Positions 1 to 9,781 of a DNA stretch of 32,000 nucleotides are shown piece after piece. Every line of letters begins with the position of its first letter. Within the stretch, counting starts at the first letter, position 1. The position numbers and the translations under genes were made by a program. The notes beneath the pieces were generated by a model. It was not told the origin of the DNA, did no database searches, and saw only the letters and a list, made by a program, of their open reading frames with translations. The DNA is from Pseudodesulfovibrio piezophilus C1TLV30 (lineage in GTDB: Bacteria > Desulfobacterota > Desulfovibrionia > Desulfovibrionales > Desulfovibrionaceae), in the NCBI RefSeq assembly GCF_000341895.1, contig NC_020409.1:2820001-2852000 (forward strand). The letters run 5' to 3'.

Positions 1-1
1 G

Positions 2-424
2 TTGGCGGTGTCAGGGCGACCTATTTATGCGGAATGTGGCGGCTTTATGGTTCTATGTGATTTCCTGGAGTATGGCGGACACACCTTCCCTATGACAGGG
101 GTCTTTCCTGTGGGGACCACATTTTGCGAGCGGCCACAAGGTTTGGGGTATACAGAAGCCGTTTCAATCAGGGAAACTCCTTTCTATTCTGAAGGAGCGG
201 TGGTCCGAGGACATGAATTTCATTATTCCGTCTGCCTCGATCATGCATCTAAAGAGCTTGATTTTACAATGAAAATGCTCCGAGGCAAGGGGATTTTAGA
301 AAGCCAAGACGGACTCCTTTATCAAAAGACGCTTGCGGGGTATAATCATACCCATGCTCTGGCCGTTCCTGATTGGGCACCTCGTTTTGTTGCAGCGGCC
401 CAAAGCGGAAAGGAGCTTTCTTGA
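2..424 (+). CDS. cbiA: cobyrinate a,c-diamide synthase (CbiA/CobB family), C-terminal glutamine amidotransferase domain; the 5' end lies outside the window
   Basis: The ORF is open from the window edge. The translation has the CobB/CbiA amidotransferase signature IYAECGGFMVL (nucleophile Cys) and GHEFHYS. Stop at 422-424. Confidence 0.8.
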   Translation: MAVSGRPIYAECGGFMVLCDFLEYGGHTFPMTGVFPVGTTFCERPQGLGYTEAVSIRETPFYSEGAVVRGHEFHYSVCLDHASKELDFTMKMLRGKGILESQDGLLYQKTLAGYNHTHALAVPDWAPRFVAAAQSGKELS

Positions 425-438
425 AAGACCTGTCATGA

Positions 439-2754
439 ATGAAAAGTGAGAATATGGAATATTTCAAAAAACTATACGAAAAACGAGGTGGACAGGGCGC
501 TCCGGCTCCTTCTTTTACCACAGATTGGCCGTGGCTGATCCTTTATGGAGCGTGCGTCTATTTGGTCGTTTTCTTTTTCAGATTCGGGTTTGCCGACCGG
601 TGGGATGCCTCTGAATTATGGGTCAATGGGGAACGGATTCTTGCTACCCATGATGCCTATTTCTGGTTGGCAAAAGCCAAGGGCATAGGGAGTCTTGCCG
701 GGTATCCGCTTGCTCAGGCCGCCCACTTCATACACTCTGTCACTGGTGTGGGACTGGGAACGCTCGGCTTTTGGGCCCCCGCTTTCATGGGAGCTTGTGT
801 CGGAGTTATCTGTTTCCTGTGGGGCTGGCTTATCAGCGGCAAACAGGGCGGTATCATTGCGGGTGTCATTGGGAGTCTCACTCCTGGCTTCTTCTATAGA
901 AGCCGTTTGGGATACTTTGATACGGATATGTTCACGCTGCTTATGCCCATGTTCGTTGCATGGCTTTTGGCCGTATGGTCCTTGAATCATACTCGGTTTT
1001 CCTGGGACTGGGAAGGAGGCGCAGAAGAGAACTCTCGACAAAGCCGCATGAAGTTCGGGTTGTGGCAGGCTTTCTCCTTTGGTGTTCTCACCCGATTCTG
1101 TCTTGTCTGGCATATTGATATCGCAAATGTCTGTGTTTTATATTTCCTTTTCACCACCGTCTATGTGTTAGTTCGTGGAGAAAAAGGGCAGAGGACACAC
1201 GCTATTCATGAGTTGGGCATCTTTATGCTGGCTGCTTTTCCGGGAGCGGCGTACGGGCAGCTCTGGCTTTTCCCTTCATTGTATGCGCCGTTTACCCATC
1301 TTTTCCAGGTGACGCCGTTTATTTATTCAACAATTATGGGAATTGGCTTCGCTCTTCTTTATCTGATTGCTGTGAACATTGGTCGTTCCAGAAACTCGTC
1401 CTGGGTCAAAAATCCGATACTCTGTGGTGCCATTTTTTTGGTGTTGATCTATTTGGTGAATCTTATTGTTGCACCCTTCCCAGCCATTTTTGAAAAACTT
1501 GCAGGATACCTGACTCCCACAGCCCCGCATGGGGAGGCAAGTGGGACGGAAGCCCTTGGTCCGATTTATCCGTCCATTGTCCAGAGCATCATAGAGGCAA
1601 AAAGAGTTGCGCTTTCAATTATTCTTGAGAGAGGGTTGTTTGAAGCATGGCTTGGAGGGCTTGCGTTATTGATGACTGTGGGCGTTGTCATTGTCCGTCC
1701 TGTTGCAGTCTTTTTATTGCCGTTGATCGTGTTACATCTTGCCAGTGTCAAGCTGGGGGTCCGGTTCTCCATGTTTGGCGGTGCTGCGTTGAGTGTTTGC
1801 TTTGGCGTTGGGGTTTACTGGATTTCTAAGAAGGCTTTTTCCGGTTTGCCTCTCAAAAAATGGTTCATCCTTGGTTCCCAATGCCTGGTTGCCGCGCTTT
1901 TTCTCTGGTTTATTCATGGGCGGTATTCAAAGATTCCGCTCACCCCTGTTATCCCTGCTCTTCATGCGGAAGCGCTGGTTGAGTTGGCGGCGCATTCCTC
2001 GCCGGATTCCGTGGTCTGGACCTGGTGGGACTGGGGCTATGCCACACAATACTATGCAGGGCGCAATACTGTTGCAGATGGTGGTAAACACGCCGGGCGG
2101 GATGTTTATCCACTGGCGTTTGCCTTGACGACAGACTCCCCGAAAAAAGCCAATGGCATGATAGCTTTCAGTTCCCAATATCCTGGCGAGGGCCGTGATT
2201 GGGTCGGGCTGTATCCTGCCCGTCAGTGGGATTCCATTCCCCGGTCAAAGTTGTCGGAAACTCTTGATGAGCAGATATCCAAGGAAACGTATCCGGCGCG
2301 GCCGGGCCAATTTCTGGTTGTGACCTGGAAAGACATCAGAATAGCGCAATGGATTACCTATTTCGGGAATTGGAATCTTCAAACAGGGACAACGAAGCAG
2401 GCCGCCATCGGCAGTTATGATCCGGGAAAGCTTGGGGTCAATGTGCAACGCGGAGCCATCATGACCCGAAACGGGAATGGTGGTTTGGTTCGGGATATCG
2501 CTGTTCTTGGGTCTGGTGCTGTTGAGAGAAAGGAATACTTCATGAATAGCATGTCGCCAAGACTGCTTCCTGTCAAAAGGCATCTCCTTGTCAATAGTGT
2601 CTCCAAACAGTGCGTCCTCATGGATAGGCTTGCTTACAGAAGCATGTTGACCCGCCTGTTGATCGGTGATCCTGACGACCCGGAGATTAGCAAATATTTC
2701 AAATTAGTCGTGGATAAATTGCCCTTTGCAAGAATCTACGAAGTCATACAATAA
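439..2754 (+). CDS. pglB: STT3/PglB-type oligosaccharyltransferase (N-linked protein glycosylation)
   Basis: 771-aa ORF. The N-terminal ~480 aa contain many hydrophobic spans and are followed by a soluble C-terminal domain. WWDWG (nt 2023-2037, aa 529-533) corresponds to the WWDYG motif. THDAYFW (D72, nt 652-654) and YFDTDMF (D161/D163, nt 919-927) match the acidic EL1 and DxD catalytic loops of PglB/STT3/AglB. The start is uncertain (ATG 439 or ATG 454) and neither has a strong SD. Confidence 0.85.
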   Translation: MKSENMEYFKKLYEKRGGQGAPAPSFTTDWPWLILYGACVYLVVFFFRFGFADRWDASELWVNGERILATHDAYFWLAKAKGIGSLAGYPLAQAAHFIHSVTGVGLGTLGFWAPAFMGACVGVICFLWGWLISGKQGGIIAGVIGSLTPGFFYRSRLGYFDTDMFTLLMPMFVAWLLAVWSLNHTRFSWDWEGGAEENSRQSRMKFGLWQAFSFGVLTRFCLVWHIDIANVCVLYFLFTTVYVLVRGEKGQRTHAIHELGIFMLAAFPGAAYGQLWLFPSLYAPFTHLFQVTPFIYSTIMGIGFALLYLIAVNIGRSRNSSWVKNPILCGAIFLVLIYLVNLIVAPFPAIFEKLAGYLTPTAPHGEASGTEALGPIYPSIVQSIIEAKRVALSIILERGLFEAWLGGLALLMTVGVVIVRPVAVFLLPLIVLHLASVKLGVRFSMFGGAALSVCFGVGVYWISKKAFSGLPLKKWFILGSQCLVAALFLWFIHGRYSKIPLTPVIPALHAEALVELAAHSSPDSVVWTWWDWGYATQYYAGRNTVADGGKHAGRDVYPLAFALTTDSPKKANGMIAFSSQYPGEGRDWVGLYPARQWDSIPRSKLSETLDEQISKETYPARPGQFLVVTWKDIRIAQWITYFGNWNLQTGTTKQAAIGSYDPGKLGVNVQRGAIMTRNGNGGLVRDIAVLGSGAVERKEYFMNSMSPRLLPVKRHLLVNSVSKQCVLMDRLAYRSMLTRLLIGDPDDPEISKYFKLVVDKLPFARIYEVIQ

Positions 2755-2768
2755 CAAAGAGAGTACAT

Positions 2769-3899
2769 ATGACCATTCCGTTTATCGATTTGAAAGCACA
2801 GTACAAGCTCGTCGATGAAGCCGTCAAAAAAGGAATCGACGGCGTGCTTGAGCATGGTGCCTATGTCATGGGACCGGAGATAGGTGCCCTGGAAAGTCAT
2901 CTTGCATCGTTTTCCGATGTCAAACATGGCGTTGGCTGCGGCTCTGGTACAGATGCCTTGATTATGGCTCTGATGGCCTTGGGAATTGGACCTGGGGATG
3001 CTGTTTTCACCACTCCTTTCACTTTCATGGCGACTGCCGAGGCAATCGCTCTTCTGGGAGCAACACCTGTTTTTGTCGATATTGATCCCATTACTTTCAA
3101 TATCGATCCCGATGATCTGAGAAAAAAAATTGGTGAGATCAAGGACAAACGCAAGGATCTCAAGCCCAAAGGAGTTATCTCCGTAGACCTTTTCGGTCAG
3201 CCTGCTGATTATGATCGAATCGAGCCTCTGGCCCATAATAACGGACTTTTTCTCATTGTTGATGCGGCCCAGTCCTTTGGAGCAACGTATCAGGGCAAAC
3301 CCGTGTGCTCCTTTGGTGATGTCGCATGCACTTCCTTCTTCCCGGCCAAGCCCCTCGGTTGTTATGGCGATGGAGGGATGGTCTTTGCCCAGAATGACGA
3401 ATTGCATAAGCTGCTCGTTTCTGTTCGTGTCCATGGCATGGGTGAGGATAAGTACGAGAACGTCAGGCTTGGTATCAACGGCCGTCTTGACTCCATGCAG
3501 GCTGCAGTGCTTCTTGCCAAGTTCGAGATATTCCCGGATGAGGTCATCAAACGGCAGCAGGTTGCAGCGCGTTACGGGGCATTGTTGAACGATGTGGACG
3601 GCCTGACAACACCCAGCGTTCCAGAAGGGAATACCTCTGTCTGGGCGCAGTATTCCGTGCTGGCGACTGACAGCGACCACCGAGAAGAGCTCATGGGAAA
3701 ACTCAAGGAAAACAATATCCCGTGCGTTATTTATTATCCCAAGGCATTGCACCTTCAGAAGGCATTTGCCAATCTTGGACATGTCATGGGAGATTTCCCG
3801 GTATGCGAGAATATATCCTCGCGCATCTTCAGTTTGCCGATGTATCCTTACCTCAAAGCCGAGGATCAGGAGACCATTGCTTCGGTTCTCAAAGGATAA
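2769..3899 (+). CDS. DegT/DnrJ/EryC1/StrS family PLP-dependent sugar aminotransferase (PglE-like)
   Basis: 376-aa ORF starting 14 nt after the pglB stop. The N-terminus (IPFIDLKAQY...HGAYVMGPEI..LE) and GSGTDAL, VDAAQSFG and FSFFPAKPLG (PLP-lysine region) are typical of the family. Confidence 0.9.
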   Translation: MTIPFIDLKAQYKLVDEAVKKGIDGVLEHGAYVMGPEIGALESHLASFSDVKHGVGCGSGTDALIMALMALGIGPGDAVFTTPFTFMATAEAIALLGATPVFVDIDPITFNIDPDDLRKKIGEIKDKRKDLKPKGVISVDLFGQPADYDRIEPLAHNNGLFLIVDAAQSFGATYQGKPVCSFGDVACTSFFPAKPLGCYGDGGMVFAQNDELHKLLVSVRVHGMGEDKYENVRLGINGRLDSMQAAVLLAKFEIFPDEVIKRQQVAARYGALLNDVDGLTTPSVPEGNTSVWAQYSVLATDSDHREELMGKLKENNIPCVIYYPKALHLQKAFANLGHVMGDFPVCENISSRIFSLPMYPYLKAEDQETIASVLKG

Positions 3900-4226
3900 A
3901 TGATGGCAGCAGGGCGTCGTGCGGTTATGCTTCGGGTTTTGAAGCCCATTATGGCGGGATTGGCTCTTGCGTATCTGGTGACAGGGTTTATTGACAAGCC
4001 CACACCTGTCCACTTTCAGCCTGAGAACCCATATGCTTCAAAACAGGAAGAAATCGCAGAGCCGCTTGCAGATACCGTGATTGACAAGAACATCATGAAG
4101 CTGGGGTCACCATTGTCCGTACCGGCTCAGAGAGTGCCGTCGGAAAATCCTCTGGCTCCGTTGGAGATCATGGACGGGGAGATCGGGGCATCGGTTGACA
4201 CGCAGAGCCGCTTGCAGATACCGTGA
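3900..4226 (+). CDS. small N-terminally membrane-anchored hypothetical protein, prematurely terminated by a frameshifting tandem duplication
   Basis: The ATG abuts the DegT stop (TAAATG). A hydrophobic anchor (VLKPIMAGLALAYLVTGF) is present. The reading frame runs through repeat copy A and hits TGA 24 nt into copy B because the repeat period (146) is not a multiple of 3. Confidence 0.55.
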   Translation: MMAAGRRAVMLRVLKPIMAGLALAYLVTGFIDKPTPVHFQPENPYASKQEEIAEPLADTVIDKNIMKLGSPLSVPAQRVPSENPLAPLEIMDGEIGASVDTQSRLQIP

Positions 4227-4346
4227 TTGACAAGAACATCATGAAGCTGGGGTCACCATTGTCCGTACCGGCTCAGAGAGTGCCGTCGGAAAATCCTCTG
4301 GCTCCGTTGGAGATCATGGACGGGGAGATCGGGGCATCAATTGACC
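4055..4346. repeat. 146-bp direct tandem duplication (2 copies: 4055-4200 and 4201-4346)
   Basis: Base-by-base comparison shows the first 138 nt are identical, followed by GG vs AA, 5 identical nt, then A vs C at the last position. Confidence 0.95.
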
Positions 4347-4414
4347 GTATCGTCTCTGATAATGCGACTCCCAGCGTCAGAATTGAGATCAGGGAAAATC
4401 AGCAATCACCATAA
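4223..4414 (+). pseudogene. 3' remnant of the same small gene, displaced into another frame by the duplication
   Basis: It translates to IDKNIMKLGSPLSVPAQRVPSENPLAPLEIMDGEIGAS, identical to residues in ORF 3900-4226, then continues IDRIVSDNATPSVRIEIRENQQSP. Only a GTG start is available and there is no RBS. Deleting one 146-bp copy fuses both pieces into a single 122-aa ORF. Confidence 0.5.
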
Positions 4415-6420
4415 CGGACTCTCTGTTCCAGAAAGTCTTCCAAACCACGAATCGCCTCATGGTCTTCAAAGAGCCTGAGGCGATTTTTTTGTATCTGCCC
4501 ACGCAGACGTGCCCTGAACGCTGCATCCGTGCCGCATCGAACAGCAAGGTCTACATAGGCTTCAAAAGAGTCTGCCTTGGCCTCGGGTATATCAAGCATG
4601 GACAGGACTCCGGCAGTATGACGTCCTCGCATCAATCCCTGTGGCCAGGTGATGATGGGAAGCCCACAATTGGCAGCTTCCATTGCCGTATTGAACCCGG
4701 ACCACTCGATGGAATCAAGAAAGACGTTACAGAGACAATTGAGTGCATGATATGCCTTGGGCGCTTGATGAGGTAACATGACGAGAGAGTGGGTTGCATC
4801 AAGACCGAATTCCGCAAAGGTTCTGGTCATTCGTTCCAGGAAACGTCTGTTAAGCACATCGGCCTGGGCATCTTGGAGAAATACGAATCGGCAGTCGGGG
4901 ACGCGTTCAGCAATGAGGGGATAGAGCCGGTCGTATTGCGGAAGATATTTATACAGGGATTGGGGGCAGAAGTAGAGAAGAGCGTCGTCCGGGAGGCCGA
5001 ATGAGGCTCTCTTAAACTCAGGTGGGCCATGGCGAAGTGGAGTGTAATGGATGCCAATATGAGGCAATTGTACCAGTTCTTCGGTGTAATTCGATTTCCC
5101 ATCGGCTGGTTCCATCAGTTCGTTGCTGAGGAAAACATCCATGGTCGGTAATCCAGTGGTCATGGGGTGTCCAAGGGAGACGCATTGGACCGGTGCAAGG
5201 CGAAGTCCTGCGAGCTTCGCACATGTCGGGTCCATTCCGATATCCGGGTAGATGAGTACATCAAGCTGGTCTTCCACGATACTTTGGCAAAGTTTTTCGA
5301 AGTTGCCGGACTCATGAGTCAATCCTTGCAACAGGGCTTTGGCTTCCTCTGTGCATCGATCGTTTTTAATTCCGGTGTAGTAGCCGAAAACATCAAATTT
5401 GCGCCGATCAAGATGGTGGACCCAGCCACGGGTTGGGATTTTCCAGACGGAGTGTTCACACATGAATCCGGTGGCGATGCCGACTCGTATTTTCCCGCTT
5501 ATTTTTCTTGTTTCGGCACGCTGTGTATAATGAGGAAAAGCTGTCGCCATGATGCGGCTGACAAGCGCACCGTATTGTCTTTGAAGATCCCGGTCATTCT
5601 TGCCTTGATAGGTCAAATAGAAAGGCTGGTTTGCACCGACCATGGCTGCGGCTTCGCGGATTTGTTCAGGGGAATCGAGGGTCAAGCGTTTATCAAGTTC
5701 TGTGAGCGCCTGAGCATAGGCGTTGCGTGAGCGTCGAACCGCATCTTCACTGTTATAGAACATGTCAAGATGGGCAAAACAGCCTCCCCAAAGTGGTGCG
5801 ATGGCTGCAGGGGCGAGTGCGTGAGCTGAGGAAAAATAATGATGAGCGAGTTGCATGTCTCCGCGTGCCTGCCAAGCATTGCCGAGATTGTACAGAGTAT
5901 CCAGTGAAGAGGGATCAAGCTCAAGGGCTTTTTCGAGCGTGGCTATTGCCTCTTTCGGTCTTTTGGCGGCCTTGAGAGTGACACCAAGGTTATTGAGCGT
6001 TTCCGGGGTAGGCGGAGCAGCTTCCAAGGCTTTTTGAAACCAGTCGAGAGCGAGGGGCTGGTTTCCTGTGGCCAGGAAGACACTGCCAAGGCCATCCATG
6101 GCAGTTGCTGATGTTGGTTCGATCTTGAGAGCGTGCTTGTGCCACCGCAACGCTTCGAGATAATTCCCTTGGGCCAGACAGACGTTTCCCAGTCCATTCC
6201 ACGCTTCAGTCTCCTCGGGCATGAGTCGGGTTGCGAGTCGGTACGCGGTCAAGGCTTCAGGCAGGTGGTGCATTTGGAAAAGAGCCATGCCGAGGTAGAG
6301 TGCAGCCTCTGCGTATGGAGGGTCATTTTCCAGAGCCTGACGGTATAACGCGATCGCTATTTCCAGTTCACCTGATTGGTGATGACGTGCAGCAAGAGTG
6401 AATAACTTCATGGCATTCAT
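4399..6420 (-). CDS. TPR-repeat protein fused to a GT41 (O-GlcNAc transferase / SPINDLY-like) glycosyltransferase domain
   Basis: 673-aa ORF. The N-terminal ~200 aa are TPR repeats (AEAALYLGMAL.., WNGLGNV.., LNNLGVTL.., LYNLGNAW). The C-terminal part has the bacterial OGT-like pattern (APVQCVSLGHPMTTGLPTMDVFLSNELMEP...YTEELVQLP, and a later CLCNVFLDS..WSGFNTAMEAANCGLPIIT). Its 3' end overlaps the convergent small ORF by 16 nt. Confidence 0.8.
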   Translation of the reverse strand: MNAMKLFTLAARHHQSGELEIAIALYRQALENDPPYAEAALYLGMALFQMHHLPEALTAYRLATRLMPEETEAWNGLGNVCLAQGNYLEALRWHKHALKIEPTSATAMDGLGSVFLATGNQPLALDWFQKALEAAPPTPETLNNLGVTLKAAKRPKEAIATLEKALELDPSSLDTLYNLGNAWQARGDMQLAHHYFSSAHALAPAAIAPLWGGCFAHLDMFYNSEDAVRRSRNAYAQALTELDKRLTLDSPEQIREAAAMVGANQPFYLTYQGKNDRDLQRQYGALVSRIMATAFPHYTQRAETRKISGKIRVGIATGFMCEHSVWKIPTRGWVHHLDRRKFDVFGYYTGIKNDRCTEEAKALLQGLTHESGNFEKLCQSIVEDQLDVLIYPDIGMDPTCAKLAGLRLAPVQCVSLGHPMTTGLPTMDVFLSNELMEPADGKSNYTEELVQLPHIGIHYTPLRHGPPEFKRASFGLPDDALLYFCPQSLYKYLPQYDRLYPLIAERVPDCRFVFLQDAQADVLNRRFLERMTRTFAEFGLDATHSLVMLPHQAPKAYHALNCLCNVFLDSIEWSGFNTAMEAANCGLPIITWPQGLMRGRHTAGVLSMLDIPEAKADSFEAYVDLAVRCGTDAAFRARLRGQIQKNRLRLFEDHEAIRGLEDFLEQRVRYGDC

Positions 6421-6548
6421 GATAAAGAGCTTAGCCTAAGAGTCGGGCAAAGGTAAACTGATGCATTTGCAACCCGAGCACGGCTCTGGTACATGGAGAA
6501 ACCAAATTGATATAAAGCCGGGCATGGTCTGGCTCAAAGGAGTTATTC

Positions 6549-7046
6549 ATGATTAAAATGGAAACCAGCATGGGAGAGTTCGTCATTGAACTCGATTTCG
6601 AGAAAGCACCCAAGAGTGCCGCAAACTTTCAACAGTACGTTGAAGAAGGCTTTTACGATGGGTTGATCTTTCACCGCGTCATCAATGGCTTTATGGTCCA
6701 GGGCGGTGGAATGGATGAGAACATGAATGAAAAGCAGAGCCGTGAACCCATTGAGAACGAAGCCAACAATGGATTGAAGAATGAATGCTACACCTTGGCC
6801 ATGGCTCGGACCATGGACCCGCATTCCGCTTCCTCCCAGTTCTTTATTAACGTCAAGGATAATGGATTCCTGAATTTTTCCAGTGAAACTTCACAGGGAT
6901 GGGGCTATGCCGTTTTCGGCAAGGTCGTCAAGGGCACGGAGGTTGTTGATGAGATCAAGGGTGTGCCCACTGGTCGGAACGGCTTTCATGATGATGTTCC
7001 GGTCGAGCCTGTTTTTATTACCAAAGCGACAGTGGTCGAAGAATAG
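6549..7046 (+). CDS. ppiB: cyclophilin-type peptidyl-prolyl cis-trans isomerase (cytoplasmic, no signal peptide)
   Basis: 165 aa with FHRVINGFMVQGGG and SQFFIN motifs. GGAG lies 7-10 nt upstream of the ATG. Confidence 0.92.
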   Translation: MIKMETSMGEFVIELDFEKAPKSAANFQQYVEEGFYDGLIFHRVINGFMVQGGGMDENMNEKQSREPIENEANNGLKNECYTLAMARTMDPHSASSQFFINVKDNGFLNFSSETSQGWGYAVFGKVVKGTEVVDEIKGVPTGRNGFHDDVPVEPVFITKATVVEE

Positions 7047-7065
7047 ATTCACTCGAAATGTCTTG

Positions 7066-7100
7066 AAAAGACCCGGCACATCACTGTGCCGGGTCTTTCT
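7066..7100. terminator. rho-independent terminator after ppiB (A-run/T-run on both sides, possibly bidirectional)
   Basis: aaaa-GACCCGGCACA-tcac-TGTGCCGGGTC-tttct. Perfect 11-bp stem. Confidence 0.85.
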
Positions 7101-7140
7101 TATGCAAAGCTTCCATCTGAGTCTTGGCTGATATAAGGCA

Positions 7141-7176
7141 AAAGAAAAGGGCTGCCCTGTCTGGAACAGCCCCTTG
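7141..7176 (-). terminator. rho-independent terminator after livF
   Basis: On the minus strand: GGGGCTG..(loop)..CAGCCC followed by TTTTCTTTT, about 20 nt past the livF stop. Confidence 0.65.
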
Positions 7177-7198
7177 TGAGAGTTTCGTTTGTGGATAC

Positions 7199-7936
7199 CT
7201 AGCCGCCCAGATAGGCTTTCTTGACTTCCGGATCTTCCATGAGTTTGTCAGAGGGTCCTTCTGCCACGATTTCTCCAGTATCTATGACGTAGCCACGGTG
7301 GGCAAACTTCAGAGCAAGGTTGGCGTTCTGCTCAATGAGCAGAATTGTCATGCCTTCCTCATTCAGTTCTTTGAGGGCGCGAAACATATCGTACATGAGC
7401 AGGGGAGCAAGTCCCATGGAAGGCTCATCGAGCATGATGATCTTGCAGCCGGACATCAGTGCGCGCCCAAGAGCGAGCATCTGTTGTTCGCCACCGGACA
7501 AGGACTCGGCGCGCTGTTTTTTCCGTTCATCCAACCGGGGAAAGAGCGTGTAGACTCGTTTGTAATCCCGATTAATCTCATCCATACCCTCTTTTCGGGC
7601 ATAGGTCGCGATTTTGAGGTTCTCCTCAACGGTCAGGTTGCCGAAAATATGGCGCCCTTCCGGGACCAGCGCCATATGCAGATTGGCCACGATTTTATCC
7701 GGAGCCATGCCAAGAATAGATTGTCCCTTGAAGAGAATGTCACCCTTGATGACCTTGGGAGCTTCGGGCGGAGGAAGTTGGGCAATGGACATCAGGGTTG
7801 TGGATTTGCCTGCTCCATTGGCTCCTATGAGCGTGACGATTTCACCTTCGCCCACTGTGAAGTTGATCCCGTGCAGGGCTTCGATATTGCCGTACTTGAC
7901 GTACAAATCCTTGATTTCAATAAGTGGAGTACTCAT
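7199..7936 (-). CDS. livF: branched-chain amino acid ABC transporter ATP-binding protein LivF
   Basis: Walker A GANGAGKST, signature LSGGEQQML, Walker B IIMLDEPS. The start was reset to MSTPLIEIKDLYV; its ATG overlaps the livG stop (ATGA). The 37 codons upstream in the ORF track are Arg/His-rich and look like noise. Confidence 0.9.
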   Translation of the reverse strand: MSTPLIEIKDLYVKYGNIEALHGINFTVGEGEIVTLIGANGAGKSTTLMSIAQLPPPEAPKVIKGDILFKGQSILGMAPDKIVANLHMALVPEGRHIFGNLTVEENLKIATYARKEGMDEINRDYKRVYTLFPRLDERKKQRAESLSGGEQQMLALGRALMSGCKIIMLDEPSMGLAPLLMYDMFRALKELNEEGMTILLIEQNANLALKFAHRGYVIDTGEIVAEGPSDKLMEDPEVKKAYLGG

Positions 7937-8700
7937 ATATTGTCGTCTCCAAGATAGGCCTTGATGACGGCCGGGTTGGACTGAATGTCTTCTGGAGTGC
8001 CTTCCGCAATGGTGGAACCGAAGTCGATGACCTTGATCCACTGACATAGGCTGGTCACGACTTTCATCTGATGTTCGATCATGAAGATGGTGATGTCGAA
8101 GTTCTCGTGAATCCAGTGGACGAGTTTGATGAGGTCTTCAACATCTGCTGAGTTCAGCCCAGCAGCAGGCTCATCAAGCAGCAGCAGCTTTGGCCTGATG
8201 GACATGGCACGGGCTATCTCAACCCGGCGTTGCAAGCCATACGGCAGGTTTTTGGGGAATTCCTGAGCATATTCCGTCAGACTCATGGCTCCGAGCAGCT
8301 CTTCGGCTATTTCGAGAATCCGCGCTTCACGCTGGCGGTATTTTTTACCCCGGAGGATCGAATCGAGAACCGAGTAGCCCATACGGTAGTGCTGGGCTAT
8401 TCTGATGTTGTCGAGAACGGTCATGTCGTGCCAGAGGCGAATGTTCTGGAAGGTTCTGGCAACGCCAAGGGAGGTGACCTGATGTGGTTTGAGCCCTGCT
8501 GTCAGTGATCCGTCCAGCGTGATGGTTCCTTCCGTTGGTTGGTAGAAGCCGGATATCAGGTTGAAGATAGTAGTCTTGCCTGCTCCGTTGGGACCGATCA
8601 GCCCCATGAGTTCGCCGCCTTTCATATCTATACTGAACTCGGAAACGGCCTGAAGGCCGCCAAACCGCTGGGTCAATCCGTCTATTTTGAGAAGTGACAT
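7933..8700 (-). CDS. livG: branched-chain amino acid ABC transporter ATP-binding protein LivG
   Basis: Walker A GPNGAGKTT, LPYGLQRRVEIARA, LLLLDEPAAG. The start was reset to MSLLKIDGLTQRFGG (ATG at 8698-8700), 10 nt after the livM stop. Confidence 0.9.
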   Translation of the reverse strand: MSLLKIDGLTQRFGGLQAVSEFSIDMKGGELMGLIGPNGAGKTTIFNLISGFYQPTEGTITLDGSLTAGLKPHQVTSLGVARTFQNIRLWHDMTVLDNIRIAQHYRMGYSVLDSILRGKKYRQREARILEIAEELLGAMSLTEYAQEFPKNLPYGLQRRVEIARAMSIRPKLLLLDEPAAGLNSADVEDLIKLVHWIHENFDITIFMIEHQMKVVTSLCQWIKVIDFGSTIAEGTPEDIQSNPAVIKAYLGDDNI

Positions 8701-8710
8701 GACGGACCCC

Positions 8711-9781
8711 CTATTTGAACGTGTAGTATTTTTTGAGTTTCGGGAAGACATCGGACAATTCTTTGTTGCCCATGATGCCTTCTGGCCTGAACTGCATGAC
8801 AAGGACCAGGAGCAGGGGGATCATCACCCATTTGATGACTCCTGCGGAAGGTTCCCAATCCGGGAAGACCCAGGTTGCCGGTGCCAGCAGAAAGTCCATG
8901 AGAGCCTGAGATCTGAGCAGCTCCATGAGGGCTGTGAAAACCACTGCCGAAATAACTGCTCCGGACAAGGACCCCATGCCGCCGAGATAAACCATGACCA
9001 TGGCTTCGGTGGACTTGAGGATATTGAAGGATTGTGGATTAACGTAGCCGACGATATGGGCAAAGAGGCCTCCCGCGCATCCGGCGAGACCTGCTGAGAT
9101 CATGAAGTTGATTGTTTTGATCTTGTTGGTGTTCACGGACATGATTTCAGCCGCCACTTCATCCTGACAGATTGCGTTCACGCCTTTTCCGTAAGTGGAT
9201 GTGATGAATCGGCGTATCACCCAGATGGTGAAGATGGTGAATGTGATGACCCAGAAGAGCATCCATGGGCCGTTCAGCGTGTCTTTCATCGCCCAGACTG
9301 TGCTTTTCATTCCCTGAAAACCTCGGGAACCGCCAATCCAGTCAATGTTTTCGATGCCTGAGATAACCATGTAATTCACCGCAATGGTGATGATTGCCAG
9401 ATAGTCATCACGGGTTTTGAAGGATGGGATGGCAACAAGGATGCTGCACAAGGCCGCCATGACACCACCGATGAGGATTATGAGAGGAAAGACCAGAAAC
9501 GCCAGTGAAGCCGGAAGCATGGGGTCACCCAGCTTGTCACCGAAGAAGGCTACGGAGAGGACTGAAGACACATAGGCCCCCACACACATGAAAGCGGCGT
9601 GACCACAGGTGAATTCACCCATGTTGCCGTTGACTAGATTCAGACTTGTGGACATCATGATGTTGATACCAACGAACATGATGACTGCCTGAATGTAGTT
9701 TCCGATAATGCCGAACTGTGCCAGGGTCAGTAAGACGACGGCACAGGCCAGGATCAGAACATTGAGAGAGTATTTCTGCAT
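8711..9781 (-). CDS. livM: branched-chain amino acid ABC transporter permease LivM
   Basis: Polytopic membrane protein with LivM-type sequence. ATG at 9779-9781 is preceded by GGGAGA. The TTG at 9796 in the ORF track is less likely. Confidence 0.85.
   Translation of the reverse strand: MQKYSLNVLILACAVVLLTLAQFGIIGNYIQAVIMFVGINIMMSTSLNLVNGNMGEFTCGHAAFMCVGAYVSSVLSVAFFGDKLGDPMLPASLAFLVFPLIILIGGVMAALCSILVAIPSFKTRDDYLAIITIAVNYMVISGIENIDWIGGSRGFQGMKSTVWAMKDTLNGPWMLFWVITFTIFTIWVIRRFITSTYGKGVNAICQDEVAAEIMSVNTNKIKTINFMISAGLAGCAGGLFAHIVGYVNPQSFNILKSTEAMVMVYLGGMGSLSGAVISAVVFTALMELLRSQALMDFLLAPATWVFPDWEPSAGVIKWVMIPLLLVLVMQFRPEGIMGNKELSDVFPKLKKYYTFK

Follow-up and report, generated by a model that had tools for sequence, protein, structure and literature searches.

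The small gene described here lies in a 32-kb stretch of DNA (32,000 nt; referred to as the window) from Pseudodesulfovibrio (formerly Desulfovibrio) piezophilus C1TLV30, which is DSM 21447 and has a chromosome of 3,646,098 bp. The PglB and DegT proteins of the window are exact matches to CCH49865.1 and CCH49866.1 of this strain. Matches to PF21436 and PF01041 identify the two genes upstream, and the small gene is located directly downstream of pglB-degT, as the initial annotation had stated. No base separates the TAA stop codon of degT from the small gene's ATG, so that the two genes are probably translationally coupled. At the other end, a hairpin resembling an intrinsic terminator starts 35 nt past the stop codon of the small gene, which makes it the last gene of a plus-strand operon, (cbiA)-pglB-degT-small gene. 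This hairpin is contained in the 3′ end of a convergent gene, whose product has TPR repeats and an O-GlcNAc-transferase-like GT41 domain. The TPR-GT41 gene is found between the small gene and a cyclophilin gene only in the window, in two closely related metagenome contigs (L001 and L002) and in two further loci (L009 and L013), and is absent from the remaining related loci. An Rfam scan of positions 3000-6000 returned nothing relevant. The coordinates of all features are summarized in Table 1.

Table 1. Features of the small-gene locus, with positions counted from the first base of the window.
Feature	Position	Strand	Evidence or remarks
pglB, STT3-type oligosaccharyltransferase (CCH49865.1)	439-2754	+	PF21436, E 1.8e-35; WWDWG motif
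degT-family sugar aminotransferase (CCH49866.1)	2769-3899	+	DegT/DnrJ/EryC1, PF01041, E 4.6e-106
Small gene, restored	3900-4414	+	single-copy product of 122 aa
Truncated 5′ ORF, 108 aa	3900-4226	+	predicted membrane anchor, conserved core, unit region
Copy A of the 146-nt unit	4055-4200	+	TRF, direct comparison, alignment with single-copy L001 and L002
Last 8 nt of copy A, GGTTGACA	4193-4200	+	contains all three differences; novel junction with copy B
Copy B of the 146-nt unit	4201-4346	+	3′ end (…CATCAATTGACC followed by GTATCG) identical to single-copy relatives; taken as the ancestral state
Stranded 3′ part of the gene, 63-aa ORF	4223-4414	+	native frame of copy B; annotated as WP_041720380.1, hypothetical protein
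Convergent gene, TPR repeats and GT41 glycosyltransferase domain	4399-6420	-	3′ end shares 16 nt with the end of the small gene
Hairpin resembling an intrinsic terminator, then U7	4449-4490	+	inverted repeat; -20.8 kcal/mol, z -4.9

Tandem Repeats Finder (TRF) detected only one array in the whole 32-kb window, at 4055-4345, with a period of 146, 2.0 copies, 98% matches, 0 indels and a score of 568. A base-by-base comparison of 4055-4200 with 4201-4346 gave 3 mismatches, at unit positions 139, 140 and 146 (copy A/copy B: G/A, G/A and A/C), while the first 138 nt are identical. The two methods agree with each other and with the tandem duplication of 146 bp reported in the initial annotation, whose factual statements all checked out. 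The repeat is not extendable into the bases flanking 4055-4346 (direct comparison), and a perfect repeat of 138 nt in 32 kb cannot be the result of chance. At the novel join between the copies, GGTTGACA is directly followed by CGCAGAG, and the junction sequence of the two-copy allele is CATCGGTTGACACGCAGAGCC. For comparison, the one-copy path runs from ...GAAGAAATCGCAGAG through a single unit to ...ATTGACCGTATCG, and the sequence entered from the one unit in the one-copy allele, after the left flank and the unit, is GACCGTATCG.

The duplication divides the small gene into two ORFs. The first one ends with 8 out-of-frame residues (TQSRLQIP) and a TGA at 4224-4226, and the rest of the gene is left in the ORF at 4223-4414; the frameshift described earlier is reproduced in both respects by ORF analysis. 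In the genome annotation the first ORF corresponds to CCH49867.1 / WP_015415910.1, a hypothetical protein of 107 aa that is counted from the second ATG. The second ORF has no membrane anchor, and contains an SDNAT sequon and a conserved VRxEx tail. When either copy is removed in silico, a 369-nt ORF of 122 aa is obtained, and the earlier claim that loss of one copy gives an uninterrupted gene holds for both copies. The 63-aa ORF begins with a GTG that shares bases with the stop codon of the truncated ORF (GTGA, 4223-4226). This overlap could in principle lead to coupled re-initiation, giving an anchorless tail peptide, but it is probably accidental. The 146-nt unit is present in two copies only and no short repeat tracts are present in or near the small gene, so the locus is not a simple-sequence-repeat contingency locus, in which units of 1-9 nt occur in many copies and the copy number sets the frame.

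The 90%-identity cluster of the truncated protein also contains a 122-aa protein (P0063), which is letter-for-letter the product obtained by deletion of copy A. P0063 is encoded on two JGI metagenome contigs, L001 and L002 (samples 3300009848 and 3300009849, respectively), which have the same gene order as the window and, in alignment with it, a single copy of the unit each. Over 9,268 aligned nt, in a comparison covering 1-9414 of the window, each contig has 19 differences to the window (~0.2%; ~99.8% identical), most of which are synonymous, including both of those within the small gene. L001 and L002 also differ from one another. Since the differences are mostly synonymous and the contigs are unlike each other, L001 and L002 come from natural, very close relatives of C1TLV30 and not from re-assemblies of the same culture. 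The two JGI samples hold distinct strains and thereby cover a natural population of P. piezophilus-like organisms.

Besides P0063, a protein search found 60 further homologues (P0002-P0061; 106-197 aa), each with one unit region and aligned with 18 invariant columns. All homologues with a source name are from Pseudodesulfovibrio or Desulfovibrionaceae. In the 21 orthologous loci, TRF detected no comparable repeat (0 of 21), and the truncated allele is found in no other assembly, so the duplication shows no independent recurrence in this set. For the truncated product the reference genome is the sole record, and the intact form is present on two contigs. Because L001 and L002, about 60 orthologues and 21 loci are all single-copy, the single-copy 122-aa form is ancestral, and the duplication is a derived and very young change that no other record has shown so far. 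A comparison of orthologues had been suggested in the initial annotation as a way to find the ancestral form, and it gives a clear answer: the product of L001 and L002 is exact, and all orthologues have the same architecture.

The close relatives also give the polarity of the three differences. L001 and L002 read ...GGGGCATCAATTGACC followed by GTATCG, which is the end of copy B (AA...C). Because the single-copy relatives carry the bases of copy B, all three differences are derived and belong to copy A, where they fall within the final 8 nt, directly ahead of the novel junction. The change of two adjacent bases, GG in copy A vs AA in copy B, amounts to one synonymous and one conservative (V/I) substitution in the native frame. 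The probability that three random differences all land in those 8 of 146 positions is ~1.3e-4, and that of any cluster of three spanning ≤8 nt is ~0.006. Probably, the three differences either arose during the joining or are errors introduced there, and they give no indication of age. The earlier suggestion that the copies are "not simply seconds old" is therefore not upheld, in view of the clustering at the junction, its low probability and the ancestral state of copy B.

The same data bear on a reading in which the duplication is older, the copies diverge under selection, and the two ORFs work as a functional split gene. The mild nature of the two adjacent differences in the native frame (one synonymous, one V/I) and the overlap of the GTG start of the second ORF with the stop codon of the first would be in line with it. 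However, the differences sit together at the junction and only copy A shows derived bases, the other 138 nt are identical between the copies, strains of ~99.8% identity do not have the duplication, and the two-copy arrangement is absent from all sampled relatives. Moreover, the 63-aa piece is without the membrane anchor, which is highly conserved in the family. A functional split gene is thus extremely improbable.

By inspection, the only direct repeat flanking the unit is ATCG at 4053-4056 / 4349-4352, and this microhomology would predict a 150-nt in-frame duplication, so that its register is wrong for the observed 146 nt. In a search of the window, no template for the junction sequence was found within 3 mismatches. 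The AA-to-GG change makes a second ATCGG 9 nt after the first (by inspection), and TTGACA is present also at 4080-4085. Local template switching is conceivable as the source of the three changes, but this is speculation.

The position of the mismatches also fits an assembly or finishing artefact, in which two contigs or reads overlapping by ~146 nt were abutted and not merged. The differences would then be miscalled bases in the final 8 nt of the left piece, where quality is low, and the genome would carry one copy and an intact 122-aa gene. Every mismatch (139, 140 and 146 in the unit numbering of copy A) falls within the 8 nt that precede the join, the right copy is ancestral, and clean tandem duplications are usually error-free at the junction, whereas three changes in 8 nt are also what a low-quality contig or read end would give. 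The duplicated allele is found nowhere else, and the close relatives are all intact. The finishing history of the genome is relevant as well. The sister genome, from the same centre and period, was assembled by Newbler from 19x 454 reads, required 1,038 PCR gap closures in Consed, and was assessed for quality with ~1000x of 36-bp Illumina reads (PMC3587943); many gap closures are probable for the C1TLV30 genome too, and its genome paper (PMC3559428) comes without sequencing or finishing methods.

On the other side, an assembly showing two copies normally needs reads across the junction, and a check with ~1000x Illumina reads as in the sister genome (PMC3587943) would tend to expose an unsupported join, since quality mapping, if done in the same way, would show a zero-coverage hole at a false junction. 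A perfect overlap of 138 nt is readily found and merged by overlap-based finishing tools, tandem repeats are more often collapsed than created by assemblers, and reads of 454 length would span all 292 nt. Furthermore, the supposed errors are substitutions only, while the tails of 454 or Sanger reads typically give indels too. On the evidence from both sides, an artefact is the main rival reading, possible but less likely than a real duplication.

Sequence data from the same strain were also available. The Logan assemblies of two runs, SRR1344817 and SRR1344821, match the window at 100% identity; judging from the accession range and PMC10533852, these runs probably belong to the RNA-seq project PRJNA251861, which is listed in that paper. 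None of the same-strain Logan contigs spans the repeat, and one of them (L005) ends inside degT. Another contig, L003 (SRR1344821), corresponds at positions 1-878 to 3201-4078 of the window with 100% identity, and at positions 879-1660 to the region of a MoaD/ThiS gene (CCH47375.1) ~2,500 genes away, with the join lying 24 nt inside copy A. We rejected this contig as a real rearrangement of the locus, because it jumps into a distant gene; L003 is a chimeric transcript contig and is silent on copy number. No Logan contig was returned for the 63-aa ORF or the GT41 protein by exact look-up. The junction, with N at the three variable positions, had 0 matches in JGI metagenome contigs, but a control pattern from inside the unit, which is present in L001 and L002, also had 0 matches, so the JGI collection searched lacks relevant samples and the negative result for the junction is uninformative.

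The small gene belongs to a narrow family, with 24 matching clusters among 1.84 billion representatives and no match to any Pfam or NCBIfam model. Alignments show an invariant core, KP..AG..A..T..D.P..V.F..NP followed by N..KLGS..S. The order dsrAB-dsrD-cbiA-[pglB]-degT-small gene-cyclophilin is conserved in 19 distinct loci, and the small gene always stands directly after degT. The product of the window shares with this DegT-coupled family the N-terminal anchor, the invariant core and the place directly after degT. AlphaFold2, run with a 58-sequence alignment, gave a confident helix at residues 4-31 (block-mean pLDDT 81-95 over residues 1-30), and the remainder is of low confidence, with almost all of residues 96-119 at pLDDT <50. 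According to this model, the small protein is predicted to be membrane-anchored and disordered, and four basic residues before the helix suggest an N-in/C-out topology. The pglB gene is missing between cbiA and degT in six loci (L007, L017, L018, L022, L023 and L024), in which the rest of the locus is conserved; this pglB-less group of Pseudodesulfovibrio includes P. nedwellii and P. sediminis. In the loci that have pglB, this gene is far more divergent (49-55% identity, with the gene at 439-2754 of the window as reference) than degT (73-82%) and the cyclophilin gene (80-90%).

The C-terminal tails of the family are rich in sequons. In the tails of 60 homologues there are 72 N-x-T motifs, nearly all of them N-A-T or N-G-T, vs 9.4 ± 2.9 expected from shuffled tails, and N-x-S is depleted (3 vs 9.1 expected). 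Among loci L006-L024, a tail sequon is found in 12 of 13 loci with an adjacent pglB vs 1 of 6 without it (Fisher p = 0.003, in a test that ignores phylogeny). In the small protein of the window, SDNAT is located at residues 104-108, inside the stretch of low pLDDT (96-119), and this tail is exactly what the frameshift removes from the anchored product. Desulfovibrio PglBs glycosylate minimal N-x-T sites including RDNAT, while the acceptor sequon of Campylobacter PglB is D/E-x-N-x-S/T (PMC4894442). From these sequence features, we infer that the small protein is a candidate native acceptor of PglB. Since the gene persists in genomes without an adjacent pglB, PglB is not needed for its core function. 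A further-reaching version, in which the protein is a dedicated PglB acceptor displayed in the periplasm and its glycosylated tail is switched off by a genuinely reversible duplication, is very unlikely; if true, a free-living sulfate reducer from the deep sea would have an N-glycoprotein subject to phase variation.

With moderate confidence, we favour a recent spontaneous duplication that truncates the protein and could be reverted by repeat deletion. In this process, a 146-bp tandem duplication, specific to the lineage or culture of C1TLV30, would have arisen inside a small conserved gene. As 146 is not a multiple of 3, the native frame would be lost at the junction and a stop codon reached 26 nt further on. 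The resulting product of 108 aa would keep the N-terminal membrane anchor and the conserved core, but the anchored product would lose a 22-aa C-terminal tail with the SDNAT sequon and the conserved VRxEx motif, and the remaining 63 codons would be left anchorless; loss of function is the presumed consequence. Illegitimate joining would have made the junction, and the same event would account for the three base changes in the preceding 8 nt, perhaps templated nearby (the ATCGG 9 nt upstream and the TTGACA at 4080-4085). The perfect direct repeat of 138 nt would allow one copy to be lost by recombination or slippage. The allele left behind would be exactly the ancestral one of 122 aa, and the lesion is in principle revertible. 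Such a loss would be expected fairly often, at roughly 1e-5 to 1e-3 per generation in view of how tandem repeats are generally deleted in bacteria.

Being revertible is not the same as being an evolved switch. In an evolved reversible ON/OFF (phase-variation) switch, a one-copy ON state and a two-copy OFF state would toggle at high frequency. The duplication does lie inside an ORF and shifts its frame, its precise loss restores the exact wild-type protein in silico, the gene context (surface and glycosylation genes) is one in which phase variation is common, and cap3A provides a precedent, as it is described in PMC11163986. But the duplication is present in 0 of 21 orthologous loci and the truncated allele in no other assembly, no direct repeats flank the unit, the sole microhomology (ATCG) would give a 150-bp in-frame duplication, and the three extra changes at the junction are unlike the product of recurring slippage. 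Moreover, although reversion can occur often, the duplication would seldom arise anew. We found nothing in support of an evolved ON/OFF switch, which is quite unlikely, and the duplication, if real, is a one-off mutation. The initial annotation had left three options, namely a reversible switch, a very recent pseudogenisation and an artefact. The last two are kept, while the switch finds no support from recurrence or flanking repeats. What remains is a recent, strain-specific duplication that makes a pseudogene of the small gene, in a revertible but unprogrammed way, or a finishing artefact.

In either case, one conserved gene, divided by the duplication or by a join error, accounts for both WP_015415910.1 and WP_041720380.1, which are its halves, and users of the genome, including those who work with per-gene RNA-seq counts, should treat both ORFs as one disrupted locus. 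If the duplication is real and present in the cells, the type strain would be a naturally occurring knock-down of this gene, which all relatives have in intact form, and would be usable for the study of its function. The duplication itself is an ordinary phenomenon, an instance of a known mutation type whose chief use is the correction of annotation. Of greater interest is the sequon-rich protein coupled to pglB-degT, as a candidate native substrate for studies of N-glycosylation in sulfate reducers. It is like PglB acceptors in being a predicted anchored and disordered polypeptide, with homologue tails packed with N-A-T/N-G-T and a gene directly after pglB-degT, and unlike the known ones in that its acceptor role is putative and its gene persists without an adjacent pglB.

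The closest known system for a reversible duplication is cap3A of Streptococcus pneumoniae, in which reversible tandem duplications cause phase variation of the capsule (Waite et al. 2001, as reported in PMC11163986). As in cap3A, according to that report, a tandem duplication inside an ORF corresponds to the OFF state and precise loss of a copy to the ON state; here the frame-abolishing intragenic duplication is observed, and the loss of a copy, made in silico, yields the natural protein P0063. However, cap3A is described there with many independent duplications, arising at measurable frequency, and with both states coexisting in cultures, whereas P. piezophilus has one allele in one genome record, no recurrence in relatives, and extra changes at the junction. 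The arrangement is also like an uncollapsed contig-end overlap of the 454/Sanger era, with adjacent copies and mismatches at the extreme end of the left copy, but such overlaps are normally removed by overlap-aware finishing and short-read mapping, as in the sister genome (PMC3587943). Apart from the three substitutions clustered within 8 nt of the junction, which are the only oddity, the locus is like an ordinary spontaneous duplication or pseudogene in a cultured isolate: a near-perfect repeat limited to one strain, with no long flanking repeats and with the gene intact in the closest relatives.
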